Origin: Sphyrna mokarran
Lineage: Eukaryota
Reading direction: 5' to 3'
Assembly (NCBI GenBank): GCA_024679065.1
Contig: JAGIQG010000001.1
Location: forward strand, 92,628,001-92,692,000
DNA length: 64,000 nucleotides
The notes beneath the pieces are model-generated. The model searched no databases and was not told the DNA's origin. It saw nothing but the letters and a program-made list of their open reading frames with translations. Positions 5,114 through 64,000 of this stretch are shown piece by piece (within the stretch, counting starts at the first letter, position 1; each line of letters starts with the position of its first letter). The position numbers and the translations under genes are program-made.

Positions 5114-5386
5114 TCAAGGGCCATGAAATCCAAAAATTCCCAAAAATAGGGCTATACATGTGTCATTGAACTTTGCCTATAGCATCCCACTGCAGGCAAT
5201 GCAACCTACTAACTGAAATAAGTATAGCTTGTATCCAGAAATAGATAGGATGTTGAATGTTTGCACATTTAGGCAGATGGCATAGCATTTATGAAGGATT
5301 AATAAGAGTTTAAGCTTATTACCAGCCCCCACCTCATAAAGGGAGGAGCATTCTGGCTGGATCAAGAGCTGGAAGTCATTCTAAAA
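5114..5386. repeat. Unclassified ~270-bp repeat, copy 1 (inserted in RTE)
   Basis: Colinear with 5954-6234; both share tgtgtcattgaact, gcatcccactgcagg, aagtatagcttgtatccagaaatag and aaagggaggagcattctgg. Confidence 0.8.
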
Positions 5387-5953
5387 TTACAGAAGAGGCT
5401 CAAAGATATACCCATGACATGAAGAACATGCAATGGGCAGACAAGGCAAAGGAAACTCAATGTCTATCTGACATGAATGATATCTATAGCTTCTTCATTA
5501 TCACAAGCACCATTTATGGCCCAAGTATCCAAGAACCACCTCCTCTGAGACATAAGGACTGGGGAGATCTGATTAATGCATGGTGGAGGGAGCATCTTGA
5601 AAAGCCTTTTGAATCACGAATTAATTGTTAATGAGTGTGGTTTCAATTCCATCCCAGAGCACCCAGTTCGAGACTAGCTCGGAACTCTGCCAGCACCAAC
5701 AGAGGCAATGAAGCCATCACATAAATGAAAAACAAAGCAACTATTAACAGTTACTCTGGACCAATGTTTTGTTACTTTACTACTACCATTCCCACTTTCT
5801 CTGCTTTTCATTCATCGAAAGTTTTGTAAAGAGACACCAATCTGAATGCCTATGTGAGTTGCCTCAATTCCACAAAAATAATCACAAAAGTGGAATCCCA
5901 CAAGTGAGCTCAACACCTAAGTCTGCTAATGAAGGTGACCTGAATGTCAAAAC

Positions 5954-6234
5954 TCAAGGGCCACAAAATCCAAAAAATTCCTGGATTCCTGGCTACAGAC
6001 AACAAATGTGTCATTGAACTGTGCTTCTTGCATCCCACTGCAGGTAATGCCATCCACTAACTGAAGTAAGTATAGCTTGTATCCAGAAATAGGTATGCTG
6101 TTGAATAATTGCACATTTGGGCTGACATCACAGTATTTGTGAGGGATTAATAAGAGGTTAAGCTTAAAATCAGCCACCACCTCTTAAAGGGAGGAGCATT
6201 CTGGTTGGATCAGGTACTGGAAGTCCTTCTAAAA
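5954..6234. repeat. Unclassified ~280-bp repeat, copy 2
   Basis: Direct-orientation copy of 5114-5386. Confidence 0.8.
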
Positions 6235-7894
6235 ATAATTTTGAAGTGGGAATGACAGAAGAATGGCACAAAATGAAACAGCAAGTTCAAAGATTTAATG
6301 ACATTGCAATACAAGCCTTGGTGAAGGAGTTGGAGAGATGCCAATTATTCAGAGGAATCAGGACAACTTCCAAATAAACTTTACATAGAAAAAGGCATCA
6401 GCTAGCCATGACAGTCAATACCAGGTGTCTAACCCTGAGGATCTGGATACTGTGCGACAAGAAGTTTAAATGCATCATCAATGCCAGTGAATGGATCTCC
6501 AAATACCATATCGCACCAAGTGGCCCACTCTCTCACGCTACCTAATGTACCATAGCTCATTTGCCCACATATCAACAATCTGTGCTAACACTCAAGGGGG
6601 TTATGAAAGCACATTGCATTTTTTGAACTACATATTTTCTTAGTTAACTCACAAGTACCTCCCCTGACAAGTGTTCTCAGTCATGCTCAAGATGAGGCCT
6701 GCGGGCTATACCATCCCAACTTTCAATCTTATCTAACTCACAGAACTCTGAACTTTTCCCAATTCTCACTAGCAGCAACAGATGATTTTGTACTAGGATC
6801 CTGGGAATTCCTGAAACAATGGATTCACATGTGCTTTCTGTCTTCCTCCATCAGGTGGGACCTGCTGTATAAATTATAGCAATTAATGTCCTAATTGAAG
6901 GAAAATGTTCATACAACAAACTAGAGATGAATGTCAGTCATTGCGTTCTGATGTGAACAATCTTATTGTAATATTCTGTTCATAACATATCTTGTCTTTC
7001 ACCTGTTGGGTCACAAATTCTTTTTTTAACATGAGCTTGCCCTATTCTGAGAAAACGATACCACCATGTTCACTTGTGCTTTGCACATTTTTCTCAATTA
7101 AAATCAACATCTATTAAATAATTCAATGCAACAGATATTCTACAAGAAATTAGGCAGTCCCGAATTCATGGCTTGCATAATCTTTCTGAATTTCACACAG
7201 CAGTTCTTTTAAATTATTATTTATTGAGTTAAGACAACACTGTCTTTCTTAAGTTCAAATCTAGGCTTTTGATGCTAATTTTAAAATCAAATCTGCCATT
7301 TTTGGAACAGTGATATCATGTCGCAGGCTTGTAATTGCTTAATGTAGTATACTTACTTAATGTTTCTTTGGTTACCAATAATGCACAAAACTAATATCAC
7401 TGATGTTTCTCAACAATGTAACATTTATCATATGATCCTATTCATATCCTTTTGTTGTGATTACATCATGTGCTGTAATTTACCAGTGTACATAAATGAT
7501 GCAAATAAGCCCGCAAAGCACAGTAAATGCAAAGGGAGACAAACTTTTTAAAAAATATTTAGCACAGTGAAAGAAAAAGATGTTGCTGTTTTACATAATT
7601 TGGTGACAAAAGTCTAATTTAAAATGACATTGACATTAGGTTTGGAAATAAGCAGATTTGTGGGAATAAATTACATTTTAATCAGCTGCAGTCCAGATAG
7701 AAACTTACTCCTTTTTCTTATATTTCATTGCATATCATGAGTAACTTTGTACCTTGTTTTTGTGGAACAGCTTTGTTATCCAGGATTGCAAGCTCCCATT
7801 TTATGTCATGAATAAATACATGTGACTTGATTTACATGCATGCATTTATTTTGTCATCGTACGCAATTATGTTTAGGTATTAGGGTAAAATTAG

Positions 7895-9660: not shown

Positions 9661-10340
9661 TTTGATTTGATTTATTATCACATGTATTAACATACAGTGA
9701 AAAGTACTGGTTTCTTGCATACTATATAGACAAAACATACCACTCACAGAGAAGCAAATGGGAAAGTGCAGAATGTACTGGTACAGTCATAGCTAGAGTG
9801 AAGAGAAAGATCAATTTAATGCAAGATAAGTCTATTCAAAGGTCTGACAGCAGCAGGGAGGAACTTCTTCTTGAGTCAATTGGTATGTGATCTCAGATTT
9901 TTGCACTTTTTTCCCCAATGGAAGAAGGTGGAAGAGAGAATTTCTGGGGTGCGTGGGGTCCTTAATTATGCTGGCTGCTTTGCAGCGGGAAAGGTAGACA
10001 GATTCAATGGGTTGGGCTATATTCACGAACTTTTGGAGTTCCTATGGTCTTCAGCAGAGCAGGAGCTATACCAAGCCACAATACAACCAGAAAACATGTT
10101 TTCTATGGTGCATCTGTAAAAGTTGGTGAGAGTCAGAGCTGACACGCAAATTTCTTTTGGCTTCTGAAAAAGTAGAGGCATTGATGGGCTTTCTTAACTA
10201 TAGTGTGGGGACCAGGACAATTGTTGGTAATCTGGCCACCTAAAAACTTGAAGCTCTGACTCTTTCTACTTCATCCGTGTTGATACAAACAGGGGAATGT
10301 TCTCTTTACAATTCCTGAAGTCAATAACAATTCCCTTCAT
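9661..10340 (-). mobile_element. Rex1/Babar-type LINE 3' fragment
   Basis: KAASIIKDPTHPRNSLFHLLPLG C-terminal motif; 3' end ...cttttcactgtatgttaatacatgtgataataaatcaaatcaaa; splits the CR1 APE reading frame. Confidence 0.8.
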
Positions 10341-10504
10341 TTAGTTGTGGCGATAACAGAAAACTGACTCAATTAAACAACAGGACTGGGTATTAATTAT
10401 TCTTGGATCCAAGGTATTGGGAAACAATAGGAAAGGAAGAAAAGAGAGGAGATGTGACAGTTTCAATTAAGGAGAGCAGGGAAATGCTGGAGGGAAACAA
10501 TGTC

Positions 10505-10690
10505 TATGACTGTCTGTGCTGATGTGTGCTATTGCAGACCAGAACACTGCATTTGCCTGACGAAGACACGGCAGAGTGTTGAAAGCTCGCAATTTTACTA
10601 TCAAATAAATCGGTTGGATTTAAAATTGGTGTTGCTAAATTCTTACTGAGTTCTTACTACCCCAGACCAACACCAGCATCTTTACATCAT
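10505..10690 (+). mobile_element. Penelope-like element pLTR/3' end with 13-bp TSD
   Basis: aaataaatcggttggatttaaaattggtgttg...ccccag..caacaccagcatctttacatcat; flanked by gggaaacaatgtc (10492-10504) and gggagacaatgtc (10691-10703). Confidence 0.8.
10551..10594 (+). ncRNA. Minimal type-I hammerhead ribozyme motif (PLE-associated)
   Basis: ttgc-CTGACGA-a-gacac(ggcaga)gtgtt-GAAA-gcTC-gcaa: intact CUGANGA and GAAA cores, stem II, palindromic AGCT stem III, stem I ttgc/gcaa. Confidence 0.7.
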
Positions 10691-11111
10691 GGGAGACAAT
10701 GTCCCAGAGTAATCAAGGACAGAATCTACTTGGTTAGTGTCAAGGAACAATAATGGTGCAATTGCATTGCTCAGTATATTGTGTAGGCCACTAACTAATG
10801 AGAAGGATGCAGAAGAACAAATTGCAAGAGAGCGGTGTAAAATTTATAGGGTAGTTCTAATGGGGAATTTTTAATTATCCAAACAAAAGCTGTGATAGTT
10901 GCATTGAAAGCCAGGAGTTCCTAGAATACATTCAGGAAAATTTTCAACTGCAATTTGCATCCAGTCCAATGAGAAAGGGGTTACAGTTGGACCTGCTTCT
11001 TGAGAATGAGGTGGGCCAAGGAAATCAAGTGTCAGTCAAGAACATTTGGGGGACAGTGATCATTACACCATAAAATTTCAGTTGACTACAAAAAAGGCTA
11101 CAGTGCAATGT

Positions 11112-13040: not shown

Positions 13041-14056
13041 TTATGCCCTCCTTACAGCATAATTTCCAACATTACTTTGTATTGTCTGTTACATTCTTCC
13101 TTTCTTCAAATTGTAACAATGATATACAAGAATTGATGAAACAATGATGTGTGTTTATTAATGAAAAAATAATGTGCATTCTTTATTTGAAGATAGGACT
13201 TTATGCAGAAAATGTTCACTGAGAGACTGCGGCATATATCTGATCTCAACCACTGGTACTTACAGATTGCCTACAAGTTATGGGATGAATATATTGTATC
13301 CTGTCAGGATATTGATTGACAGCAGTTTAAGATATATTCCCTTAATGGTGTGTGCCATCATATCAAAACATCCTGTTTTCTTTCCAAACAAACACTTATT
13401 CTTAAAGAATCAAACTATTTACATGAAACTAAAAGTTTGAATGTATTTTATGTCTGAATGTATTTTACCATAAGAGTAATACACCTATAAGGCTCTGAAT
13501 CGTATTGGTGTTTTTTTTAATGTGCCGCCTTAGTAATGGCTTTCTTTTGTGGAGACTGATGGACATTTTCAGAATGCTGGTTAGGGATGCTTTGTGTTGC
13601 ATATTAGACCATGTTTTTGTTATTTGGTGTTCCTGGTTATGGAACTATTGGTATCTGTTATATCACATTATCACTTCACTTGGTGTCCGCACATGATATT
13701 TTCCTGGAATTCCAGGTGCTGAAATGCTTAGGCAACTGAAGATGTGACTAACATTGGTGGAGCAGTTAAAACTAGGGATGTTTACAAAACCAGAATTGGG
13801 GGATTTGATTTTGATTTATTATTGTCACACGTATTATCATACAGTGAAAAGTATTGTTTCTTGCACGATACACAGACAAAAGATACCATTCATAGAGAGG
13901 GAAACGAGAGTGCAGAATGTAGTGTTACAGTCATAGCTAGCGTGTAGAGAAAGATCAACTTAATGCAAGGTAAATCCATTCAAAAGTCTAACAGCAGCAG
14001 GGAAAAAGCTGTTCTTGAGTCAATTGGTATGTGACCTCAGACTTCTGTATTTTCTT

Positions 14057-14514
14057 CAAAGAACAAAGAACAAAGAACAAAACAGCATGGGAAACAGACC
14101 CTTCAGCCCAACGAGCCCGCGCTGCCACCCCGATGTTCCCACCTCTACCTGCGATCCCTGTCCATGTTTATAGATCTATGGATTAAAAAGCAAATTTTAG
14201 ACAATTTAGGGAGAAATTGTTTTGCCAATTAGCCTAAGAGCACATCTTTGGGATGTGGGAAGAAACTGGAGCGCCCAGAGAAAACCCACGCAAGCCCGGG
14301 GAGAATGCGCAAACTCCCACAGACACAGGCCCAAATCCATGTATCTGCACAGCATAGCGATAGTCACTGAGCTGTCGTGTTGCCCATCAAATGGTCCAGG
14401 TCAAGCGTACACTAACGACGTGAAGCACTAGGATACTCTCAAAAAAGATCCAAGAGCAGCCCTCTCATGACCCATCACGTGTATGCCCCTCGTTAGACAA
14501 CAAGGTGGACCAAA
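14057..14514 (-). mobile_element. Composite V-domain SINE with atypical structured 5' module, copy A
   Basis: Minus strand order: ~120-nt novel head, diverged HE1 head (gggcaacacgacagctcagtgactatcgct), V-domain (gtctgtgggagtttgcgcattctccccgggcttgcgtggg), HER1-like tail, (gttcttt)3; colinear with 63450-63900 (11 mismatches in one 80-nt block counted). Confidence 0.85.
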
Positions 14515-15525
14515 TTGAACTTAGAGCAATTGAACTTACAGCAAATTGAACTTAGCTGTAAGGTGGTATACATGATTAATCAAGCAAAGTTAAAATCTAA
14601 TGTCATCCATCCATTAATAGCTCAACAAATAAAGTCCCAGGTGTGGTTGCTGATCTCAACTAGGGCAACAATGTGCAAGTGATCTCAGCATCACTGGAGA
14701 AGAACAAAAAGAGGTGAAAGATTTGTGGAGGAAAATCCAGTACGCTTTGTGTCTGTTATCAATGTGGTGACAACTCTGTCAAAGTGGATGCCTTGACAAC
14801 AAGATCAGATTGGTAGCAATTCTAAATAAACTTACAAGTGGAGAAGCCATTTGTATATCATAGACACAGCGCTTTAGCATAAGTTACTTCAGAAAAAAAG
14901 GGACAAGAGAAGAAAACTGGATAAAAATTAATATATTTGGAGCACTAATTTTGAAAAGATTAGGATATAGATTGCATCACCTTGAAAGGACTTCTTTGTT
15001 TAAGTGTGGACGGTCCTCACCTTGCATGTTTAAAGAATTCAACGTGTGCATCGTGGTCTTCGGCATTTCAGAATGATCTCCCTGGTTGGGCAGCAGGGGC
15101 ACCAGATGCCTTTGTCTTCTTCCCAAAGGAAGAAAATGGAAGAGAGAATGTCTGAGATGTGTGGGGTCCTTGATTATGCTGGCTGCCTTATCAAGGCAGC
15201 GGGAAGTATGGACAGGGTTAATGGATGGGAGGCTGGTCTGCATGATGGATTGGACTACATTCATTTTGTAGATTCTTGTGGTTTCGGACAGTGCAGGAGC
15301 TACACCAAGCTGTGATACAACCAGAAAGAATGCTTTCAATGGTGCATCTGTAAAAGTTGGTGAGAATCGTGGCTGACATGCCAAATTTCCTTAGGCTTCT
15401 GAGAATGTTGGTAGGCTTTCTTAACTATAGTGTCGGCAATAGTGGGACCAAGACAGGTTGTTGATTATCTGGACACTTAAAAACATGAAGCTCTTGACCC
15501 TTCCTACTTTGTCCTCATTGATGTA

Positions 15526-15720
15526 CCAATTTTAAATCCAACCAATTTATTTCATACTAAATCTGCGAGCTTTCGACTTTTGTCTTCGCCAGGCAAATAG
15601 GTATTTGCCTCTTGAAAGCTCGCAGATTTACTATCAAATAAATCGGTTGGATTTAAAATTGGTGTTGCCAAATTCTTACTGAGTTTACCCCAGTCCAACG
15701 CCGGCATCTTTACATCATGA
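15526..15720. mobile_element. Penelope pLTR insertion with head-to-head inverted duplication and 12-bp TSD
   Basis: 15526-15599 is the reverse complement of 15602-15662 apart from a core deletion in the right arm; TSD ctcattgatgta at 15514-15525 and 15721-15732. Confidence 0.85.
15561..15598 (-). ncRNA. Minimal hammerhead ribozyme motif with one core substitution
   Basis: atttgc-CTGGCGA-a-gac(aaaa)gtc-GAAA-gcTC-gcagat; 6-bp stem I, core CUGA changed to CUGG. Confidence 0.55.
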
Positions 15721-18700
15721 CTCATTGATGTAGACAGGGGCATGTTCTCCTTTATGCTTCCTGAAGTCGATGGCAATCTTCTTTGTTTTGTTGACGTTGA
15801 GGGAGAGATTATTGTTGCTGCACCAGTTCACCAGATTCTCTGTCTCATTCCTGTAGTGCAGATATCTTGAATGGTCGTGGGTTACAGAACTTAGAGACAG
15901 AGAGAGGAAAGTCCACTGATGAATTTGAAAACAAAAATGAGAATGACAAAATGGAAGTGTTGCTTGACCAGGAAATTACACAGGTCAATGAGCAGAGAGG
16001 TGAAGGGTGAACAGAACTTGGTTCTCACTGATCAATTCAATATTCTTTAAACATTTGTCACTCTCTCGTAAATTTTAGATTCCAATAACTTCCCCACAAA
16101 ATTGTTAGAATAGCAAGTGTATGATTTATTATATTTTTTCTCACCTCTCTTATATGCAATATTTACCATTAAGGGGTTCACTTTTTCCTCAATAATGCAG
16201 TGACGAGTTTTACTATTAACTTGCAAGTATGAAGATGATTGACAACCCAATGCAGTCAAACAATAGGAGAAAACAGAAAATCACTTGAAGAGGAGAGGCA
16301 AAGTGACAGGAAGACTGACATATTGGCCTTCGTTGGTACATCCTCCCATCACTTTTAAACGGACACTGTTTTTCTGAAAATCTGATTTAAGTGCCAATAC
16401 CTCTTGTGATGCTGCTGTGTTTAGAAACTAAAGTAGATCTAATAACACGTTCACAGTTTTCTGAGTTGCAGAGGAGGCCAAAATGATCAGGTCTCCTTAT
16501 CAGATTTGGATTATATGAAAATCAAGGCCAAATGACAAGATGTAAGATTCACAAAACACAGAAAGATGAAGAACGATAAGAAGATTACATGACAGTTATT
16601 ATTTGTCTACTAGCTTTTCTAATTATCTTCACCTATGCAGAATTCAGGTGTCATTACTAACCAAAAGTTATTGACTTTTGTAACCAGAGATCATTTGCAA
16701 ACCATCTGGTGTACAAGTGGGTGAACATCTATTAATAATGATCAAATTTTAACTTTCTTTTGGCTAATTACAGTCGTATAATGGACCTTCAAAATAGCAA
16801 CTGCAAGTATATAAAATAACATAATTATTAAAGCAAATCTGTAGATAGATTTTAAGCTCATGTTAAATAGAATCCCTGAGACCTTGATGCACTTTTTAAA
16901 AAAAATACACCACATATAGATTTAAATACTATACTCACTGCCGTATCAGTAATACATTTCCTTCTGTTTCACCAGTGAACTCAGATAATATTGATAGGGC
17001 AAACTCTAAATAGAGGTAATTCCATTGTACTGCTCTGTAGCCAACAATGGGCTTCTTTATTTTCTGCTATTTTGGATCCTACACAGTAATAGCTGTTTCA
17101 GTTCCTTGCAGTAACTTTTTCAGTAAGCCACATTTAGGGAGGCACTAGCACTGGCAAGAGTCAAAAAAAATGGCAGTTGGCAGGTTGATGGTTTATGATT
17201 GGTAGAACAGGAAGTCCACATAGTGTTGGCAAGCTGCCTAATAGGCTGGCACATGCTTGTGATATGCTGGGCGGACTGCCTGCAAAGCATTGGCTCAGTA
17301 CCATCTTGTCATGATGTTAAGGGAAATGATTGGCTATATATCCAGGAATAGCTGGTCAAATGTCATCTATAGTTGCTGTGGTTCACCAAAAATTGATCCA
17401 AAGGAAAATTATATTTAAACATATAAATGCTGATCGAGTTGGATTGAATAAAATGTAGAGGATTAAATGACTTCCATGAAGTGCTTATCTCTGAGCTTTA
17501 TCCATGCAGTTTGTTTGCCACCTGAACCCTTATGTAAGATTACCAACTATAATCTTCTGGCAACAATTCAGTATCTTTTCCAGAATATTGAATTTCAATC
17601 AATTTTTCTCCTTTTCTGCTGTCATTGGTTAATGACGGAGCCTGAGAGAACATCATATTTTGGATGGTGTGTGAAAAAGAAATTCACAAAGCCAAAATTG
17701 GTGTTATGATTTTGGTGGAGGTCAGTAGCTTTGTTAGTTTATTTTCAGAATCCAAGATTCAATTATTCACCAGAAGAACAGAGCAACAAGGGTCACACTT
17801 CAAATAAAATAATTTAACCACACAAAAATCAAAGAATATGAATGACACTGACTATATTCTACCTTGAATAGTCAATTATGCTAAAGGTAGTAAAAATTCA
17901 ATGAACAAAATTACTTATACAAATCAAAATTTATATTTCGTTTTCTTTTTCTAAACCCTTACCTAAACGCTGTGAACTTGTATCTCAGAAACTCAAATCA
18001 AATATTTATCTGAACTTGGAAGATTATTCATTTGGATGAACTACTATGTCAACAACTTGTTTTTAGGCTTAGATTTCTTGGGCATTGTTTATTTCCAGCA
18101 AGTTTGTCCCTTCATACCTTCTCTATGGTTTCAAATTGCCAGTTCAGCAGAGGTATCTTAAGTAGAGGTACACCAGGTTAGAACGTATCTCATTCCAATA
18201 TACTATGTAATTCTGCATCCAAAACACACTCTCACTCTCTCTCTTTCTCCCTTTCTCCCCTCCAGCTTCATTATACCAGAAATTCAACTGTTGTGAGTCC
18301 TTCAGTTAGCACATGTTTTAAATCCTTTAGCCAACACCAGCACTTTTTAAAAAAAACAGAAATTAGATCCTCATTCTGAAGAAGAAAACCAGCTTGCATG
18401 AAAAATATTTTTTCTTAAAAAACACATGGGCCATCGCATAGGATAAGACTGTGCAATACCTTTCTCCGAACATCTTGTACGTATATCTAGCTGTGCTTTT
18501 GCTAGGAAATACCTTCAAACTGAAAGAGGTTCGTGTATAATTGCCCTTTGTTCAAAACCCAAACTTCAACATCACTTCAATTATAGTTATTCCACTTCAA
18601 ACCTGTCAAAAAATATAAATTGAATTTCACTACTATATTAAAAGCCATGTTGGTGACCTATAGCTGTGCTGCTGGGGATATTAGATGCAAACCCCAGTTT

Positions 18701-30474: not shown

Positions 30475-32378
30475 CAGAACTTGCTGCTGCTCCCCTAGAC
30501 AACTCTTCTAGTAAAGTTATAGCTCTGGCAAAAGCCTAACAATGTGAAAAATTGCCCAAGGTATGTCCTGCACGCACAAAGGCAAATCCAACCCAGCCAA
30601 ATATAATCCAGTCTATTCTCGATCATCAGTGAAGTGATGGAAAGATCATCAACACTGCCATCAAGCAGCCCCTGCTCAACAATAACCTGCTTGGTGACAC
30701 CCAGTTTGTGTTTCCCAAGGTCACTTGCCTCCTGACCTCATTACAGCCTTGATTCAAACGTGGGTGAGAGAGTTGAATTTCAGAGGTGAGGACAGAGTGA
30801 CAGCCCTTGACATCAAGGCCGTATTCAACCAAGTGTGGCATCAAAGTGCCCTAGAAAAATTGGAATCAATAGATTTTGGGCCAAGTTCTCTGCTGGCTAG
30901 AGAAATACCTGATACATAGGAAAATGGTTGTTGGAGGGTCAGTTATTTCAGCTCCAGGAAATCTTTGCAGGAATCCCTCAGGGTAGTTTCTTAAGCCCAA
31001 CTATCTTCAGCTGCTCCATCAATGACCTTCCCTCCATCGTAAAGTCAGGCAGGGGGAAATTTGCTGATGATTGCACAATATTCAGTACTATTATGACTCC
31101 TCAGATACTGAAACAGTCCATCTTCAAATGCAACAAGATCTGGACAATTCCCAGGCTTATACTGACAAGTGGCAAGCAACATTCACACCATATAAATGCT
31201 AAGCAATAATCATCTCTAATAGGAGACACTCTAACCACCGCCCCTTGACATTCAATGGTGTTATCGTCACTGAATTCCCCACAGTCAACATCCTTGGGGT
31301 TACTATTGACCAAAAACTCAACTGGACTCACCACATAAACAGCGTGGCTGCAAGAGCAGGTCAGCAGCTACGAATACTATGATGAGTAACTTACCTCCTG
31401 AGTCCCTAAAGCCCTTCCACAAGGCACAAGTCAGGAATGTGACGGAACACTCCCCATTGGCCTACAGCTCCAACAACACTCTAGAAGTTTGGATAAAGCT
31501 CCAACAACACTCTAGAAGTTTGACACTATCCAGGACAAAGCAGTCACTTTATTGGCTCCACATCTACAAACATCTAGTCCCTCCACCATCAACGTTCAGT
31601 AGTAGCACTGCATTTAGAAGATGCTCTGCAGCAATTCACCAAAGATTCTTAGACAGCAGCTTCCAAATACACAAACACTTCCATCTAGAAAGATGGAGAT
31701 TGAGGGGACACCTGATAAAAGTATGCAAGATTATGACAGGCATGGACAGAAGCTTTTCCCCAAGGTGGAAGAGTCAATTACTAGGGGGCATAGGTTTAAC
31801 GTATAAAAGGCAAGTTTTAAAAGAGATGTACAAGGCAGATTTTTTACACAAAGAGTGGTGGGTGCCTGGAAAGAGCAGGGGGAGGTAGTGGAAGCGGATA
31901 TGGTAGTGGCTTTTAAGGGGCGTCTTGACAAGTACATGAATGAGATGGGATTTGAGGGATCTGGTCCCCAGAAGCGTAAGAGGTTTTAGTTAAGTCAGGC
32001 AGCATGGTCAATGCAGGCTTGGAAGGCCAAAGGACCTATTCCTGTGCTTGAATCTTCTTTGTTCATTATACCACACTCTGTGCAAAAAAGTTGCTCCTCA
32101 GGTTCCCATTCTTTCCCCTCTGAACTTAAACCTATGCCCTTTAATTCTCGATTCCCCAACCCTGGGGAAAAGAACCAAGAACGCTTGGAAATATATCGCC
32201 ATTCCTTCACAGTGACTGGGTCAAAATCCTGGAATTCCCTCCCCAGTGGCATTGTGGGTCAACCCACAGCATATGGACTGCAGCAATTCAAGAAGGCAGC
32301 TCACCACCATTTTCTCAAGCAACTGAGGATGGGGAGTAAATGCTGGCCAGCGATGCCCACGCCCCATGAATGAATATA
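30475..32378 (+). mobile_element. CR1/L2-group LINE 3' half (RT to tail), interrupted at ~31692-32180; an older copy of the same family lies at 30150-30468
   Basis: ALDIKAVFNQVWHQSALEKL, GIPQGSFLSPTIFSCSINDLP..KFADD, KAQVRNVTEHSPLA; tail aagaaggcagctcaccacc...gatgcccac...gaatgaata. Confidence 0.85.
31692..32066 (+). mobile_element. HER1/CR1 3' fragment nested in LINE
   Basis: RLRGHLIKVCKIMTGMDR, FPKVEESITRGHRF; tail ggccaaaggacctattcctgtgcttgaatcttctttgttc. Confidence 0.8.
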
Positions 32379-33875: not shown

Positions 33876-35424
33876 GCCTCTTTGGGATCATGTATACATG
33901 TGTCCTGGGATTCTTCCTTCGTTTTTAGTGAGATTTTCATGAGTGCCTTGCATTGTTAAATTGTATATTTTTCCCATGCATTATTATAGAAATCTGAAGA
34001 CAACTAAATAAGTACTGTGTGAGTCCAAATTTTTCAAAAGATCAATCCCTGAAGCACTCAAGCCTGATTTTGTGTGTGGGTGTATCAGAATGCATATAAG
34101 GAACAAAATGCAGCCCATTGATAATGTGGTATCTATTTCCTCTATACCATTTTTACATCACAGTTAATGACAGGTGTCAGTCAAGCAGCAATAAAGTACA
34201 AAGTCCAGAAATATTTAACCAAAATTAACATTTACTTTATTATTTAATTTCTTCGGTGTTTTCCAGTTTGACATCATTTTAACACATTTGTTACAAAATG
34301 CATGGCCATTGTGACATTTCTAATTTGTTACTTCCATGCACTCAAGTGTTGAAATGCTCAGGTTTGCAGACATAATCCAGTCATTCAATACTAGGCTTTG
34401 TGCCATGTCGGCATCTGTGCTTCCATTGGCAAATAACAAGAGCATAAATGAGTAAGGAATCTATCTATATTTTCAGTGCTTTCAGAAAAAATAGAAGGTA
34501 CTTCTGATACTTTCAGAAAAAATAGAAAATACTTCCCAAGCTAACCAACACTATAGCACTAATCTACATGTTCAAAAACTATTTTTTTCATAGAATGTAT
34601 ATTTCAAAGATAAAGCTTTGTCCTTCATATGAGCAATACATAAGAAAAAATTCAAAATGCACCATGCGATGCTCTGGAAGTTGATATGGAGAAAGGGGAC
34701 AGTAAACAGAAGCCCAAAAGGGAATCTTAAGACTGACGAACTAAAATGGGTAGATAATAGAGAAATTTACAGGTGAGATTTTTGGGACATGGAGCGAGCA
34801 CGTTTCAACAGAAATAACCAAAATTAATGATGGACGATATATGGACAGCGGAATATTTGAATATTGAATTATGGAGGGTGGAGGGTAACAAAAGAGACAT
34901 CAGAAAAGTTAAGTGCTGAGGCAACAATGTGCTGGTATGAAGAAGGCAATGGAGATTAAGTGGGACAATGTTGGACAACGCTACTGAAGATGAAACTCAG
35001 CGTGTAAATGAAGAGTTGCAGCTCTAGGTCAAAGAAAATGGCAAGATTATACGCAGTCTGAGAGCAGAAGAATAAAGTTCGCAACAGATTTTCATTAAGA
35101 ATTTTTGGCAGGGACTGACAACGATACCCCTATACTTACTGATTTTCCATTGGACGAAATTCTGGCTCATCAAAGGCTTATCATCAAATGGGAAAGCGGG
35201 ATGATTTCTGTTTTAGCATGTTGATTAGTTTGGTAGGTCTGAAAAAGTCTTTGTAGTTAGACACAGGTTAACTGCAAACCTTTACAGACTTTTAGAATAA
35301 TTTAAAAATATACAGTAAAAGGTAGGGGACTCTACAGACAGTTGATCTAGGTACCTATTGTTGAAACATTTTTTGTCAAGCTGAGGGAGATTACCATTGT
35401 AACAAAGCCCACCAAAACCACAAA

Positions 35425-38047
35425 GTCTCCATGCTTGTACAAATGGCTCTGTTCAGCATGAGATTGACCCTGGGGTAGGGATATCCTCTGTTATATCACA
35501 ATGTGGGTGGTACTGTACTCAGTTCTGCATTTACCCTACATGTGCCAGACACTAACACTTATGCCTTACACATATAATATCGTAACTAAATTACCATTAT
35601 CCCATCTCCCTCCACTTCAAGTCCTTGAATTCAAAAGTTCAGGTGGTCTGGTGCCTGATAGCTCTTCCCACTTTACTTACAGTAGAGTCAGTGGAATGTT
35701 GGAGTCTGTCACTGCTCGTTCTTTGAGTTTGGAGTTTGTTCTGGAATCTGAGTACTTTCTTTTCTTCCATTCTTTCATGCTGAACCATATTCGGTTGGTT
35801 TGGCTGTTGTACTGATTGGTGATTGCTATCTTCAATCCTTTCTTGCCAGTCAATGAACATTATGCTCATGTACTTGTCAATAATTTTGCTTCTTTCACCA
35901 TGTCTAACAAGTTCCAACATCTTTTGTGGTCTTGCCAGGCTGCCTGGGAGTTAAACGGAATGTTTGGTTGTTGCAGCGTTGATCTGATGTACTGTCATCA
36001 GAGCCGGTGGTTGAGGCTCATTGGACTGCCTGTCACTTTCTTTTACAAGCATTATTGCAGGTATTGTGGCTACCTCCTGAATGAGTAGCTGGTCTGACAA
36101 TTGTGGGTTTTCTAACACCTCTAACAGAAATGGACAAACTTACTCCACAAAGAAAACAGTCAGAGCTGAAATCCCAGTCAGGATATTCTTTTTGGTTTGA
36201 GTACTTGGGAATTTGCAGTTTTGTATGATTAACAGTGGCTGTTTTGGCATCTTTTGTCACTTCTGAGCTACACAGGCATCATTACTTAAAGGGGAGAAAG
36301 GTTGGTTACAGAAGATGTCCATCAAGTCAATGTTTGCTGCCATTTCTTAGTGGTTTCAGAATCATCCCTATGACTGGAAGTTGGATTCCTCTAGATCCAT
36401 AAAATGGTGTGTTTGTTGTCCAAAGCCAGAGATTTTCAGTCAGAGTTCTTCGTCCAACATGATTGTTACACTAGTTCTTGTACCTAATTTGAAATGTTAA
36501 ATGGCCGTTGACTAAAATGCCACATTCCGAAATGAGAAACCAATATCTTTGAACTGGCCCAAGAAGCATGGCATCTTCCAGCCTTGCAGTCTTAACCTCA
36601 TGGATGATCTTTGAGCCTTCTGTGCATTTCAAATTTTGTATTTGTATTGCATAATTTACTGCAGTGTCCAACCTTGGTCCACTGAAAGCTTTAGACTGAA
36701 ATTGCAAGGCACTGATCTCACCTGTGGAGGCACTTTGATCCAAAGCATTGGCACGTTTGCTCTAATGGCCAGTTTGGTTACTGCCTTCCCTTGCCTGAAG
36801 TGACTTTATTGCATACTTAACTGAACTGTGGATTGACCTCTGCATCACTGTTTATTTTCTCCCTGAAAATAGTTCTGTGTTGCACATGGAGTTCTGACTG
36901 TCTAACTAGTTGGATTGCCTTTTTCAGGGTTGGATCTTCCTTTGCCTGCATGAGGTCAGAGAGCATGCCATCCACTATTCCTATCACTGTTTTGACTCAG
37001 ATGAGTTCAGACTTTAAGTCTCCATACTTGCAACCTTCTGTTATCCTGTACACTTCAATGATGAATGAATTGACCGCTTCTTCTGACTGCTAGACTGGCT
37101 TGTTAAATTCAGTTTTTCACCACTTGGAGACAAAGGGATTTTCTGTACTTGATGGTTTTGGTGGGCTCTGTTACAATGGCAATCTCGCTCAGCTTGAAAA
37201 AAAATGTTTTAATAATAACTACCTAAATCTACTGTAGAGTGCCCTTGCACAGTGTTTACGTAAAGAGAAATTTGTCAAATGCTGGCCTTTGCTTTCTCTC
37301 AATGGAGTTTAAAAGTCACAATTCTCTCCTGTTGTGTTTTTTCTCATTTTGGACCAAGCCCAAACAGGCATTTGCCGCTGACTTGGGGATCAGATTTTAC
37401 TGACAGTTTTTGCAAGATGCAAACCTTACTCTGAATTATTTAAAGCTTTATCAGGAATTGTGATAGCCTGAAGTTTTAAAAGATGTAGTCCACCCCTGCT
37501 AGGTCTGCACTCAGGGATTAGAAGCTAGACTTCTAAAGGAGATTCAATGAAGTCTTCTGCTGCAATAGGCAATTTTAAATTACTACCTCTAACTTCCAAG
37601 TCTTTCTTCACATTTTTTTTCCTGGAGAATTTTCCTGCGAGCCTCTGCTTCTGGAGATTCTTTTCAGGTCCATCCGCTTTGCTGGATTGTTCTCAGTTAT
37701 CCGACATTCTAGTTTTTCCTCTGTATTTTTAAAGTGTCTTGCGTTTTTTTCCATCAGCTGCCACCATGTTGTTGGCATGTTGATTACAGTTCAACAGGTC
37801 TGAAGAAGTCTTCGGAGTCAGACGTAAGTGAACTGTAGGTCTTTATTGTATAATTATAAATAATTCTAATAGTCCATTTAATAAAAGGTAAAGGCTCGCA
37901 GCTGTCTCTATGCTTTTTGGTACAGATGGTTCTTCCCAACACTAAACTGATCTTCAGTGCAGGTCATGTGCTCTCTTATAAGACTCTGCAAGTGATATTG
38001 TACTAAGTCCCCCATTAACCTTGTATGTGCCACACGCTTATACTGCA
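35425..38047 (-). mobile_element. Decayed, internally deleted Gypsy/Ty3 LTR retrotransposon (5' LTR ~37770-38047, PBS ~37757-37766, gag ~36700-37110, PPT 35605-35613, truncated 3' LTR ~35425-35604)
   Basis: Gag motif SFIIEVYRITEGCKYGDLKSELI..VIGIVDGMLSDLMQAKEDPTLKKAIQLVRQSE; PBS tggtggcagc after ..aaca; PPT ggagggaga|TG; the two LTRs share tctc.atgctt..gtaca.atgg.tc and gtact.agt..catt.acc..atgtgcca. Confidence 0.75.
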
Positions 38048-42344: not shown

Positions 42345-42584
42345 TGGTTTTAGGACAGATGTCAGAGGTAGGTTCTTTACCCAGAGGGTGGTAAGGGTAT
42401 GGAATGCCTTGCCTGTGTCAGTTGTAGATGCACCAAGTTTGGTAGCGTTTAAGAGGTTAGTAGATAAGTTTATGGATGAAAGGGGAATGGTTTAGGTTAG
42501 AGGGTCACTGCTTGTTCCTAATTGGTCGGCGCAACATCGAAGGCCGAAGGGCCTGTTCTGCGCTGTAATGTTCTATGTTCTATG
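42345..42584 (+). mobile_element. HER1/CR1 3' end inserted in a Penelope-type remnant
   Basis: FFTQRVVRVWNALP; tail ggccgaagggcctgttctgcgctgtaatgttctatgttctatg; host sequence ctctgatg|..|atgtttccagacctgctga. Confidence 0.85.
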
Positions 42585-49489: not shown

Positions 49490-50290
49490 CTGCCATTCCT
49501 TCTGATTCAGTGAGCAGTTCACTCTCTTTGTCTCATGGTCCTCACGATATCCTTCATTAATCTTTTACCATTAATATATTTGAAGAACATGTTTACTTTA
49601 GCGCAACCTGCCATTCTTTCCTCAAGCTTCCTTTTGGCTTTCCTTATCCCAACCTTAGCCTATTTCCTGCATTTGAGATACTCCTCCTGCTTTCCAGCAC
49701 TATTATTATTCCAGCATGCATCAAATGCTGCTTTTTCCTTCCTTATTTTCTCATCAGTATTCTTAGCCATCCAGGGTACTTTAGCTTTGGTTACTCTATT
49801 TATTTGTCATTAATATATACTTAGCTCACATTCTACACATCGCTCCTTTGAAAATCTCCCATTTTTCATCCACTGTTTTATCCACTAAAATGCATTTCCA
49901 ATCAACCTGCTCCAGTTCAACTTTTAAACTTCTAAAATTTGCTGTTTTCCAGTCTGGGATCTTAATCTGTGATTGATTTTTAACCTGTTCCAATTTAACA
50001 TTGAACCTTATTATGTGATTATTTCTATTTCCAACTGCTTCCCCACTTACATCCTCCACCTGGCCGGCCTCATTTTCTCGGACCAGATCCAGCATAGCTT
50101 CCTCTCTGTTAGGATTGAAAATGTACTATTCCAAAAAATTCTCCTGCAAACACTGCAGGAATTTCTCCCCTTCCATGTCCCACTCTCTACCCATTTCCCA
50201 AGTCTTAAGGTAATTCAAATCCCCAATTACTTGTACTGCAAGTTTCCATAATCTGTATAAAAATGCTGTCTTTGACTTCCTCCCCACCAA
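49490..50290 (-). mobile_element. CR1 LINE APE/linker fragment
   Basis: LDLVRENEAGQVEDVSGEAVGNRNNHIIRF..DWKTANFRSLKVELEQVDW..VDEKWEIFK. Confidence 0.8.
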
Positions 50291-50297
50291 ACTATAA

Positions 50298-50768
50298 CGA
50301 GTGCAGAAGAGATTTACTAGGACGCTATCAGAACTTGTTGGCTTGAGTTATAAGGAGACGCTGAATAAACTGGAACTTCTTTCTTTCTCAAGCAGGTCTT
50401 ATGCAGGTCTATACAATAAACCGGGGCATAGATCAGCAAGATGATCAATATCTTTTCATTAAGGTAGGGGAGTCTAAAACTAGAGGCATAGGTTTAAGCT
50501 ATAGGGGAGATATATAAAAGTGTCCATAGGGCCAATTTTTTCATACATAGGGTGGTGAATGTCTGAAACAAGCTGCCAGAGGTAGTAGTAGAGGTGGATA
50601 CAATTTTGTCTTTTAAAAAGCATTTAGATTGTTGCATGGGTAAGATGAGTATAGTGATATGGACCAAATGCGGCAACTAGGAGTAGCTTAGGGATTTAAA
50701 AAAAAGGGCGACATGGACAAGTTGGGCCGAAGGGCCTGTTTCTATGTTGTAAACATCTATGACTCTAA
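50298..50768 (+). mobile_element. HER1/CR1 3' fragment
   Basis: RVQKRFTRTLSELVGLSYKETL; tail gggccgaagggcctgtttctatgttgtaaacatctatgactcta. Confidence 0.85.
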
Positions 50769-54019: not shown

Positions 54020-54532
54020 TCCTCGTATGGCGGGACAATGTATGAGGAGAGTTTTAGTAGGTTAGGATTATTTTTGCTGGAATTCAGAAGAATTGTGGGG
54101 TGGGAGGGGCGGGGGAGGAGGAGGGAGGGAGGGAGAGAAGAAGGCTGTCTCATAGACACTTATAAAATTCTAACCGAACTGGACAGAGTAGATGCAAAGA
54201 GGATGTTCCCGATGATGGGTAAGTGCAGAACCAGGGGTTACAGTCTGAGGATTCAGTATAGACCATTTAGGACATAAGTGAGGAGACATTTCTTCACCTA
54301 AAGAATGGTGAGCCTGTGGAATTCATTAACACAGGAAGTAGCTGATGCCAAAACATTGAATGTATTCAGGAGGCAGATAGAATATAACACTTAGGGTGAA
54401 TGGGATCAAAGGTTGTGGGAAAAAAGCAGGATTACACTACTGAGTTGAATGATCTGCCACGATGGTAATGAATGGTGGAGGAGGCTTGAAGGGCCAAATG
54501 GCCTTCTCCTGCTCCTATTTTCTATGTTTCTA
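54020..54532 (+). mobile_element. CR1 LINE 3' fragment
   Basis: YEESFSRLGLFLLEFRR..LIDTYKILTELDRVDAKRMFP..RTRGYSLRI; tail gggccaaatggccttctcctgctcctattttctatg. Confidence 0.85.
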
Positions 54533-57896: not shown

Positions 57897-60800
57897 TCCA
57901 CTTTGAATAACAACCGAGTTGGCACTTCAGTTAAGACTTTCAACACTGTGGCATAGCTCAAACTAGCAATCCCCTACTTCTAATTGTTCACCATTTCACA
58001 TGTAGAGCACAGGATGGGTTTTGAAAGGTCAATCAGAACCACGCCTCCATTACATTCAGTCAGCTTCGCTAGAACAAAACAGAAGCAAAGAAAATTGCTG
58101 TATGTTGTCACAATTTTGTTCAGTCGCTTTACTATGGTGATGGTGGGTTGAAATTTAAAAGTTAAATTTAAGTTCAGAATGGTTCAGAGTCAGCAGCTGA
58201 TGCAGGGGTGGCTCTTAGCAGGTATATTGCTCTTTCCAACATCAGGTTCCTCAATGAGGTACTGAATGCCTTTGAATGATGAATCCTCACTGGCAGCTCA
58301 GAGGCATGTTGAGTCCCCAGTCCACTGCTGTGTGAATAGCAGAATAAGACCCTTAAGTGGACATGAATTGCATACTTAAAACCTCAACTTTTGATGGGAT
58401 AGGAGGGCTATTTATGGGTCTTTCTGCCTTGGACTTCATTTGAGCATTGATCGAAAAACAACTGTGACCCCATCAACCATCTGATTAACTGTCCTTCTGC
58501 TTCCAAACAGCCCACAAGTTTGGGCATTAAATTCTGTCCATGGAATCCAAAATAATTCATATTTAAATTAAACAGAGGGGATAATGTTCCAGACTCCAAC
58601 TAAAGAGACACATCAGGACCAATGTAAAATTGTTTGGAATATTTAAACTTCTGTTGGGCAATTTCTGTGGATATTTCTGAATCTGAACTAGAGTCATTGG
58701 CATCAAGAAGGTCTTCAGTTCTTATCCAGATAGTTAGCCATGAAGTGTTATTTAAAAGCTGGCCTTACACCTGGATTTCTACAGAACCAATTCACTCTCC
58801 AATTGCCAACCCGACCTTCCATCATCCCTCCTGTCCTCCTGACTATCTCCCAACCTGACTACCCCTCCTAACTGATCCAAAAATCCCCTGACCCAACTCA
58901 ACCCCAGTGGCCCGACCACCCAAATGCCCTCCAACTCTTCTATTACAGAGCTCCCCCAAGAGATGCTTGTAAAAGGTCAGGGTTGGAAAACCCTGGAAGA
59001 AATGCATAGCAGTGTCAAGTCAGGGAAAATTTCCAAGTGCAACAACAATCTGTTTGTCATCGTTGTGGTTTGGAAAATTTGAGCCACAATTTTAAAAATT
59101 CTGCATTATTTAAAATTCTCCAACTAATGCAGTTGGACATTATTTTTGTTTTCAATCCCACTTTTCCACACTTACCCTCCTAAGTTCCTTTTTATTGGAT
59201 CATTATATTGCAAGTACCAAAAGTCCAGCCAATGAAGGAGCTTATAAAGCCATTGATGAAAGCTCACCCATTCTGGATAATGGAAACGCTTTAGGAACTT
59301 CAACTACAGATGAAAATATTTTCTTTTTTTTATTTCTTGACATTTTGAAAGACTGTATCAAGGAAGGTTCAACTGAAGTTAATCAAAGGCACTCAATCAA
59401 ATGACTTGTTTATTTTTGATGATATTTCTTTCTGCAGACAACATTGCACATTTGTCACCAATAAAATCAATCGAAAAGTGGACAACATTAAACTATAAAA
59501 TAACGATGAAGGTTTAAGATGTCCTCTCCTAATAATAATGTCAAATGTTAGCACTTAACATACATATTGGGTTTTAAACAATTTGAAATGTGACCATGAT
59601 CCGACTGAGCATTTCACTCTGCTTAAACAGAGAGTCATGCTTCTGAATCTCTGCATTTATACAAGTCTCTTACAATTAAATAATCTTATATGATACATAG
59701 TTTATTCATTAAAAACTGTTTTACTTGAACAATAGGTTATGTTTCAGATTTACGGCTATTCATATTGATATACTGTTAAAAAGATCCGCTCATATTCTTC
59801 ATTACCTGAGCAGATGATTCTAAGGTGACAGCAAAATACCAAGATAACCTAAACATTATAACACAGTAATCACTATCTCTAAATGGTGCCCTAGTGAAAC
59901 TTGACCATTCTCATTCTTTATAATAAAACTGTCTCAAGATAACCAGGTCTGGCAATGCTTCCTTCCATGTTGGATCATAAATATAAAGATCTGGAAAATT
60001 CTCCTAAACAGAGATCAGAAATTCTTTTCTTTCTCAGTCTTTTACACAATTCCTATCCAACGGAATACTAGGATAATAAAGTGTCTGATTATAGCTACTC
60101 TATAGATTATATACCTGTCATTTCTTTGCAATCTTATTCCTCATCCTTCCCACTGGTTGGTGACCGACAGAATACACAGCTTAAGCCAAAGTTACAACTG
60201 CTAATTTATTTACCAAAATGATTAATATCTATTCAGGCAACCATTTTTAGTTGACTGACAGTTGACAAATTGCCACCAACAATTTCAGTTAACTGGGTAG
60301 TTTACGAAACTTGCTGTTTATTTTAATTACTTTTTAAAGTCAGGAAAGATAATGGGCAGTGAGCTGGCACATGGGGGGGGGCACCGTTGAAGTTCCAAGA
60401 GAATGGATGTCAGTAGTAACAGCTTACTAGGGATGTGTGATTGGGTCAGTAGGTGATCATAGGCAGCGGACAGGTCAGGCTCACAACAGGAGACACTCAA
60501 GATTTTCTTGTGAGGTACAAAAGAAAGTACAAATGGGACATTCTGAAAACTTGAAATGCAGGTTCCTCATTTCTTTTACTCTTTACAACAAAATTGTCTC
60601 AAGATATTTAAACAATGGAGAATATAAGCCCTCTTTTAATTTAAATATGAACTATTTTGGATTCCACGGCCTCAAAACTGAATTAATAAATTTTAAAACA
60701 AATATTCTAACTGTTAATAATTGATGCTGGAAGGTTATCGATGAAATGGTCTAGAATGGAGGATAAGTATGTAGGAAATTCATTTCAAATCAAATTCTGC

Positions 60801-62544: not shown

Positions 62545-63449
62545 ACCTGTTAGATATAGATCCCTGGGGTAGCCAATTGGACTGTTTCCTCCAGGCCTTG
62601 GTTTCATCTCCTGTGTGCTTCTTGAACCATCTGTTTCGGAGTAATGGTTTGATGGCATCTGCAACTGACAGAAGCAGGACTCGCGAGATTTTGATAAGGA
62701 AACCAGTGTTCCAGACCACGTCATGTGCTGCAGTGAGATTGAGAAAGACAATACCTGTTTTGAAGTAATTTTCAAAACGATTGTTCAATGAAGGTTAGGG
62801 CAAGGACCTGTCACATGTTCTTCACCTTCAAAAGCCAGTTTGTTCAGATTTTCACCAAATTTGGCTCCTGCCACCTTTAGATGAGACATTCAAAGGCACT
62901 GCAGCACACAAAGGGCGGAGTTATTGGCCAAGACATTTGAAGGTAAGTTTGGTTTTGGGAGGCCGATGATTTTAGACATGCGCCAGGATTCAAAAAGTCT
63001 TCCTTCACAGATAATCCTTTTGAGGAATCAACAATGTGCTTTCAACTGCATTATGAAGTTCATCTATGCTGACAATGTCTGCTGTGCCTCTCAGGCTCAG
63101 ATATTTTTAACTTAGAGGAAATGCTAAATGAAGCTGGAAAGCTAGCTAACTAATGTTGGGTTTTCAGCCCAGAGGCAACAAACCAGTCTCAAGTACATGC
63201 CACCTCCACATTGCAAATGCTAAAAAGGAGCTGAACCTCTCTTTGAACTGCAAGAAATTGAATCACAAACAACATCTTGTTTATCATTGTGTAATCCTTG
63301 ACCAAACATTGACATCTGAGTATTACAACAGAAAATGTAAAATAGCTTCCTCAGTAAACTGCTAATTCTTCTTAGACTGCAGATCCTCAAACCTTAAAGA
63401 CCTCAGCTCTTGCCATCATCCCCTCGATGACAGAATACTGTGTACCAGT
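62545..63449. mobile_element. RTEX-like LINE with inverted 5' part (62545-~63025 minus; ~63030-63449 plus)
   Basis: Minus strand: WRMSKIIGLPKP, TGIVFLNLTAAHDVVWNTGFLIKI..LLRNRWF..NWLPQGS. Plus strand: KFIYADN, CHLHIANAKKELNL..VILDQTLT, TSALAI..TEYCVPV. Confidence 0.75.
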
Positions 63450-63900
63450 AAAGAACAAAGAATAAAACAGCACGGGAAACAGGACCTTCGGCCCAACGAT
63501 CCCGCGCCATCACCCCGATGTTCCCACTTCTACCCGTGATCCCTGTCTATGTTTATAGATCTATGGATTAAAAACAAAATTTGAGACAAGTTAAGGAGAA
63601 TTTGTTTTGCCAATTAGCCTAAGAGTACATCTTTGGGGTGTGGGAGGAAACCAGAGCACCCGGAGAAAACCCACGCAAGCACGGGGAGAATGCGCAAACT
63701 CCCACAGACACAGGCCCAAATCCATGTATCTGCACAGCACAGCGATAGTCACTGAGCTGTCATGTTCCGCATCAAATGATCCACGTCAAGTGTACACTAA
63801 CGACGTGAAGCACAGGGATACTCTTGAAAAAAAACCCAAGAGTAGCCCTCTCACGACCCATTGCGTGTATGCCCCTTGTTAGACAACAAGGTGGGCCAAA
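63450..63900 (-). mobile_element. Composite V-domain SINE with atypical structured 5' module, copy B
   Basis: Colinear over its full length with 14057-14514; inserted immediately after EYCVPV of the RTEX element. Confidence 0.85.
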
Positions 63901-64000
63901 ACACCTGTAGGATAAAAACAAATACATCAATATCATCATCTATTTACACACTTCCCAGGGACTCCCAAGGCTCATGATCCCTATTTTAAATCAGTTTTCT

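Follow-up and report, generated by a model that had tools for sequence, protein, structure and literature searches.

5′ transduction is documented for the L1-driven elements of primates, SVA and L1. In the excerpted report on SVA, such events are ascribed to upstream promoters, and some of them begin in an exon and continue into the intron where the element resides (PMC12593883). For CR1-type machinery, parts of the literature describe a stringent recognition of the 3′ tail and note that non-L1 elements end in short tandem units (PMC3747384). Extra bases at the 5′ end are frequent among L2-clade LINE inserts in cells of fish and chicken, and the available sections of these studies describe them as flank-copied or as products of template jumps (PMC4245944, PMC4760211, PMC2666801). 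According to the same kind of partial accounts, such bases occur in about 40–50% of zebrafish L2 inserts (PMC4245944, PMC2666801) and also in 12% of full-length Alu inserts (PMC2912911). In the literature that we searched (titles and the starts of abstracts, with the primed spelling of 5′ unmatched and most subscription journals outside), there was no case of a CR1-dependent SINE with a 5′ transduction. Here we describe a locus in which a SINE-derived element and 600 bp of extra DNA, termed X, are enclosed by one target-site duplication (TSD; Table 1). The locus lies in a 64-kb stretch of repeat-rich vertebrate DNA with a GC content of 0.39, which was analysed as a whole and is referred to as the window. 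The V-SINEs, the CR1-like remnants, and the shark and bony-fish homologues of the Rex1-type element point to a cartilaginous fish as the probable host. Elsewhere, the window contains a local 280-bp duplication (81%; 5114–5389 / 5954–6237) and two inverted pairs, each with a spacing of roughly 2 kb, which are possible DNA-transposon ends (35324–35426 / 37147–37245 and 58538–58579 / 60629–60669).

Table 1. Features of the insertion locus and of related copies in the 64-kb window
Feature	Position	Strand	Basis
Second Rex1-type copy, empty-site reference	9661..10347	-	Alignment to both flanks
3′ end of Rex1-type LINE remnant (C-terminus, 3′ UTR, tail)	13804..14057	-	83% to 9661–9913; tblastn of homologues at 14055/14052–13978
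TSD copy at the element's 3′ end	14050..14057	.	7/8 match to 15115–15122; null 0.0003
3′ tail, 7-bp unit x 3.6	14057..14081	-	TRF; one base overlap with TSD
CR1-type 3′ tail region	14067..14124	-	Weak tail matches of copy B (see text)
V-SINE central (V) domain	14229..14326	-	72–83% matches to conventional copies
Degenerate tRNA-like head, B box missing	14330..14386	-	Alignment; ~18 nt shorter than conventional
128-nt structured 5′ leader	14387..14514	-	89% A/B; counterpart in B at 63772–63900; T6 run 14446–14441 in hairpin loop
Junction scar	14511..14555	.	TRF score 76; 15 bp x 2.9; overlaps leader's first bases
X, host-like DNA	14515..15114	-	Background composition; no second copy in window
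Unspliced candidate GT-AG intron of 327 nt, possibly fortuitous	14694..15020	-	One of 10 consensus donors and one of 3 strongest acceptors in window
Exon-like 94-nt block ending at donor	15021..15114	-	GC 0.50, 3 CpG; no protein homologue
TSD copy at X's 5′ end	15115..15122	.	Same 7/8 match, homologue alignment, null
5′ part of Rex1-type remnant	15115..15793	-	PF09004 E 1.3e-4; 73–75% to second copy
Copy B of the element, without X	63450..63900	-	89.8% over 451 bp
Six conventional V-SINE copies	20180, 22896, 25271, 32700 (-), 40822, 49172		70–80% alike; at least two tail types

The target of the insertion is a LINE remnant that we take to be of the Rex1/Babar type, a name that was not returned by any search. 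The remnant has 397 homologues, which include sharks and bony fish and many of which contain PF00078; a reverse transcriptase followed by PF09004 characterizes this LINE, with PF09004 found on the remnant itself and PF00078 plus PF09004 in homologues. It is split once, at 14057|15115, with an 8-bp duplication at the break and zero LINE sequence lost. Among 20,000 random site pairs, a single fixed 8-mer passed the same test for a duplication at the rate listed as the null in Table 1. The second Rex1-type copy in the window aligns to 13804–14057 and then picks up again at 15122. In a tblastn comparison with 38 named homologues from fish, shark, and frog (a selection from 120 listed), 23 match both flanks, collinear and in register, none matches wholly within X, and the L-P-x-G-R-R-Y-R motif of the homologues spans the TSD overlap. 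Since the second Rex1 copy and the homologues place the break independently, its position was not picked post hoc. The single mismatch between the TSD copies agrees with the 10% divergence between the two copies of the inserted element, A and B. Both breakpoints and the imperfect duplication had been proposed in an initial annotation of this DNA and are borne out here; the change of reading frame content after FLPLGRR, to which it also pointed, is real, but any insertion would cause it.

A separate TSD was looked for around the element alone and around X alone, and none was found. The structure is thus confirmed as it had been proposed: one TSD surrounds the element plus 600 bp of extra DNA, and X lies 5′ of the element on the transcribed strand, in agreement with the minus-strand orientation. 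Because there is one TSD and none for either part, the 1057 bp either entered as a single unit or were built base-exactly at one site. That an assembly chimera or a later recombination mimics this structure is hardly credible: the region is repeat-rich, but mis-joins do not give collinear Rex1 flanks with an 8-bp overlap that contains a mismatch, there is no N in the window, and a vector or phage origin of X was discarded after a search that gave no match among plasmids or phages. We also consider it very improbable that two insertions hit one site, with X arriving first and creating the TSD and the SINE later landing exactly between X and a TSD copy. Nesting is common here, and the same Rex1 copy bears a second insert, at 15525–15720, with its own 12-bp duplication; but a base-exact second hit would be needed, its own TSD was not found, and X carries neither terminal repeats nor any other feature by which it could insert.

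The insert at 15525–15720 is palindromic (50-nt arms, 94%), with its duplication at 15514–15525 / 15721–15732. A partial copy is present at 10551–10691, and a hammerhead-like core pattern occurs in both. Rfam miRNA matches at this insert are far under the gathering score. The insert resembles the end of a Penelope-like element.

The inserted element (copy A, 457 bp) has one further copy in the window, copy B, to which 14065–14514 is 89.8% identical over 451 bp. On the minus strand, the element is composed of a 128-nt leader, a degenerate tRNA-like segment, a V domain, a middle part, a CR1-type tail, and 7-bp tandem repeats. In a count made by eye, the V domain is identical to the V_HCD block, as published in supplement 1 of PMC6887750, at 40 of 50 positions in copy A and 42 of 50 in copy B. 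The tail of copy B weakly matches five other sites in the window (E 0.019–1), one of which, 50714–50748, lies behind a CR1-like ORF2 end as read by eye. Several CR1-like LINE 3′ remnants (50200–50760, 31310–32373, 42527–42581, and 54452–54531) have ends that weakly match the element's tail and form a candidate partner family.

The 5′ half of the element differs from that of the conventional V-SINE copies in the window. A tRNA head with A and B boxes is not found at the 5′ end; the initial annotation had placed the SINE head at 14514, but the degenerate tRNA-like head is internal: it begins near 14386, behind a leader (14387–14514) that copy B shares. The similarity of this head to the six conventional heads is marginal, being equalled by 78 (copy A) and 63 (copy B) of 2000 shuffles. 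Relative to the six conventional V-SINEs, each family copy lacks about 18 nt at the place where the B box belongs, and a B box within two mismatches is present in neither of them, compared with five of the six conventional copies. Conversely, T-runs of at least 5 nt occur in both family copies (T6 and T5; T8 and T5) and in none of the six conventional ones. The premise that the element is a Pol III SINE with an internal promoter is therefore not upheld. Pol III terminates at T-runs. With the B box lost and T-runs of this length present, a leader-containing RNA would be a poor Pol III product, and these sequence features suggest that the element is transcribed by Pol II.

The leader folds better than its shuffles (z −2.65 for copy A and −4.29 for copy B) and is absent ahead of all six conventional V-SINE copies in the window. 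Neither the leader nor X has a match in Rfam near the gathering score, and no Pol II promoter motif is clearly conserved between the two leaders. An HDV-like ribozyme was considered and rejected: a relaxed descriptor gave no match in copy A and 22 overlapping matches in copy B, which depend on the T-run loop. The leader may be an internal Pol II promoter, a LINE 5′ end, a fixed 5′ capture, or a self-cleaving RNA. Copy B has a probable 7-bp TSD (63444–63450 / 63903–63909, 6/7 match) that lies 2 nt from the leader, with a null of 0.011 for a near-flush position and of 0.18 for the whole scan. This near-flush position indicates that ordinary members probably begin at the first base of the leader, which counts against the 5′ transduction claimed in the initial annotation.

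X resembles the DNA that surrounds it. Its GC content (0.39) and CpG o/e (0.27) are to be compared with 0.39 and 0.22 in the window and 0.49 and 0.60 in the element; X thus shows the CpG depletion of old host DNA, whereas the element does not. Neither blastn nor nhmmer found X elsewhere in the window, which extends 13 kb to the left and 49 kb to the right (best E 4.5). The initial annotation had named as a refutation of its claim that X is an independent transposable element or has a TSD of its own; no such TSD was found, and no repeat match within the 64 kb.

A coding origin of X was set aside as well: within the first 150 nt of X, two of the three frames on the minus strand have no credible protein relative. 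In large protein sets (proteins of at most 2000 aa), X frames gave two and one candidates, none at E ≤ 10. Translations of X matched Pfam in none of five queries (the fifth out of frame), yielded nothing usable in the ESM Atlas, and returned synthetic TPR repeats or nothing from the PDB. Two protein matches to X are bacterial-type repeat proteins with scores summed over repeats and were dismissed, as was a single match of a relaxed hammerhead pattern, which starts at 14694 inside a purine run.

The first 94 nt of X nevertheless have an exon-like appearance, as judged from base composition and a splice signal. The donor that closes this block is on the element's strand and is the CpG-richest of the 10 consensus donors in the window, although these signs are post hoc and weak, since 4 CpG in 110 nt were found in 150 of 6389 intervals of that size. 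The start of X fits an exon followed by the start of an intron with an intronic element, as described for SVA (PMC12593883), only if the acceptor is cryptic; if both splice sites are real, their retention speaks against a mature mRNA. Within X, 14640–14720 (+) may resemble a DeuSINE relic (AmnSINE1/SacSINE1-like), a likeness that searches did not confirm; if it is real, X would be old host DNA and the acceptor a cryptic antisense site.

The boundary between the element and X is marked by an array that the initial annotation had missed, along with the loss of the B box and the leader. The array consists of three 14–16-bp repeats of the final bases of X, one of which has an 8-bp fold-back, and adjoins the leader with a 4-nt overlap with its first bases. 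Three copies of an 11-mer were found in 2 of 6394 60-nt intervals, both of which represent this array; because it is unique in the 64 kb, it is a joining scar and not a product of chance. It shows that the end of X and the 5′ end of the element were joined by re-priming. As the extra 5′ bases of L2-clade inserts are often copied from the junction flank, the scar suggests that the end of X formerly flanked the element in the genome. It fits equally an older insertion that was later transduced and a template jump at the present site.

The array also bears on the idea that X is part of a repeat, either as part of a family of about 1.06 kb, in which copy B would be a 5′-truncated member, or as the 3′ end of a different retroelement that is tailed by the 15-bp array. 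The window offers only two family copies, LINE insertions most commonly end up 5′-truncated, and short tandem units at the ends of non-L1 elements, reported in the excerpt cited above, would suit such a tail. Copy B, however, ends where the folded leader begins, no more than 3 nt from the array, which is improbable for a random truncation, and X differs from the element in CpG o/e and has neither a coding match nor a repeat match within the window. We therefore regard membership of X in a repeat as quite improbable.

The template jump at the present site would make the structure a one-off chimera in which X never stood beside the element in the genome. After copying of the full element, the cDNA end would have jumped to an unrelated RNA or a broken DNA end, started there and aborted twice from one and the same position, then copied 0.56 kb and been joined to the target. 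This account draws on the three scar units, which restart at the same point of X next to the element's first bases, on the frequency of extra 5′ bases in zebrafish L2 inserts, and on the unspliced state of the intron-like segment; partial accounts also describe LINE template jumps that yield TSD-flanked chimeras (PMC2104539; bioRxiv 2025.02.02.635956). The extra 5′ bases in the reported inserts, as far as the excerpted studies specify them, are mostly “several” nucleotides taken from the local flank, whereas X is 600 bp long and absent from the sequence on either side. Moreover, the loss of Pol III signals, an indication of long Pol II templates, plays no part in this account. Capture during the present insertion is the main rival explanation, less likely than not in our estimate but not far behind the reading that we favor.

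The best reading of the locus, which we hold tentatively and with slightly less than even confidence, is a 5′ transduction from a Pol II read-through RNA. The template would be a Pol II RNA that runs through host sequence X into a parent copy of the B-box-less V-SINE derivative. A CR1-type reverse transcriptase would start at the CR1-type tail, pass the leader, and proceed about 600 nt farther upstream, so that target-primed reverse transcription (TPRT) by the CR1-type LINE would insert the 1057-bp cDNA at the Rex1 remnant. On this reading, the triple repeat would be a 5′-joining scar that arose when the parent copy itself was inserted earlier and that was copied along; we infer both the CR1 partner and the parent locus. 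This transduction is favored by the single TSD around the element plus X, by the background-like nature of X, which lacks repeat and protein matches, and by the exon-like block with a consensus donor on the element's strand at the start of X, and Pol II read-through templates are a priori more plausible for an element that has lost its Pol III signals. It is weakened by copy B, which starts at the same leader base with a probable near-flush TSD and so suggests ordinary members with a defined 5′ end, by the unspliced donor–acceptor pair in X, by the lack of a conserved Pol II promoter motif in the leader, and by TSDs of 7–8 bp, which exceed the 3–5-bp peak cited for CR1/L2. The interpretation in the initial annotation is partly supported: the mobilization from Pol II or read-through transcripts that it had put forward gains independently from the B-box loss and the T-runs, but not from the scar, which a template jump at this site explains equally well. 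Judging from this one locus, the family may shuffle host DNA.

A broader proposal is that a V-SINE lineage, probably of cartilaginous fish, lost Pol III transcription, gained a structured 128-nt leader (perhaps a fixed 5′ capture), and is now mobilized by CR1 machinery in an SVA-like manner, from Pol II or read-through RNA, with host exons and intron DNA regularly carried in front of it; this would be an independent, non-L1 origin of 5′-transducing retroposons, which we consider rather doubtful at present. If a 5′ transduction took place here, LINE machinery that recognizes a tail would be able to copy Pol II transcripts of the host by way of a SINE embedded in them, CR1-rich genomes without many retrocopies would gain a route to shuffle exons and promoters, and the family would become a test case of a SINE that switches polymerase. 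If X was captured by a jump instead, the locus adds one more template-jump chimera, and only the B-box-less family and its leader are new. Taken together, the locus represents a known kind of mechanism in a new setting, and the B-box-less, leader-bearing family is the lead most worth following.

Among known systems, the HE1 and other V-SINEs of sharks and rays, with the partner LINE HER1, share with the element a V domain and a tRNA-like segment just ahead of it, and probably also a LINE-derived tail. Compared with the six conventional V-SINE copies in the window, the element lacks a B box and has a degenerate A box, internal T-runs, the 128-nt leader, and a different tail. It is a V-SINE derivative and not a canonical HE1, with HE1 compared through its mention in PMC4824008, PMC3747384, and PMC10468316.

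Template-switch chimeric retrogenes (U6/L1, Alu/L1, and the Magnaporthe WEIRD-MgSINE-MGL), in the partial descriptions at hand, likewise unite two unrelated sequences in the same orientation within one TSD. Their 5′ partner is usually an abundant full-length RNA, whereas X looks intronic. The zebrafish elements ZfL2-1 and ZfL2-2 copy junction bases from neighboring sequence at 5′ joining, which parallels the 45-bp array; the extra bases that the excerpts describe are short and local and leave 0.56 kb of non-local DNA unaccounted for. The co-option of the RAP1GDS1 promoter by L1PA2 (bioRxiv 2025.02.02.635956, in part) resembles the transduction that we favor, in that a promoter-damaged element is mobilized from a host promoter, but there the excerpt describes an autonomous L1 with spliced exons, several progeny, and a mapped source.

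SVA elements differ from the present one in being L1-driven, in their poly(A) tail and TSDs of about 15 bp, and in having mapped source loci, while the element described here has a CR1-type 7-bp tandem tail, an 8-bp TSD, a V-SINE body, and a source locus that is predicted. In the excerpted account of the 5′ transductions of hominid SVAs, including SVA_F1 (PMC12593883), the arrangement is nevertheless the same as at this locus: a non-autonomous retroposon and the host sequence upstream of it, joined within one TSD.
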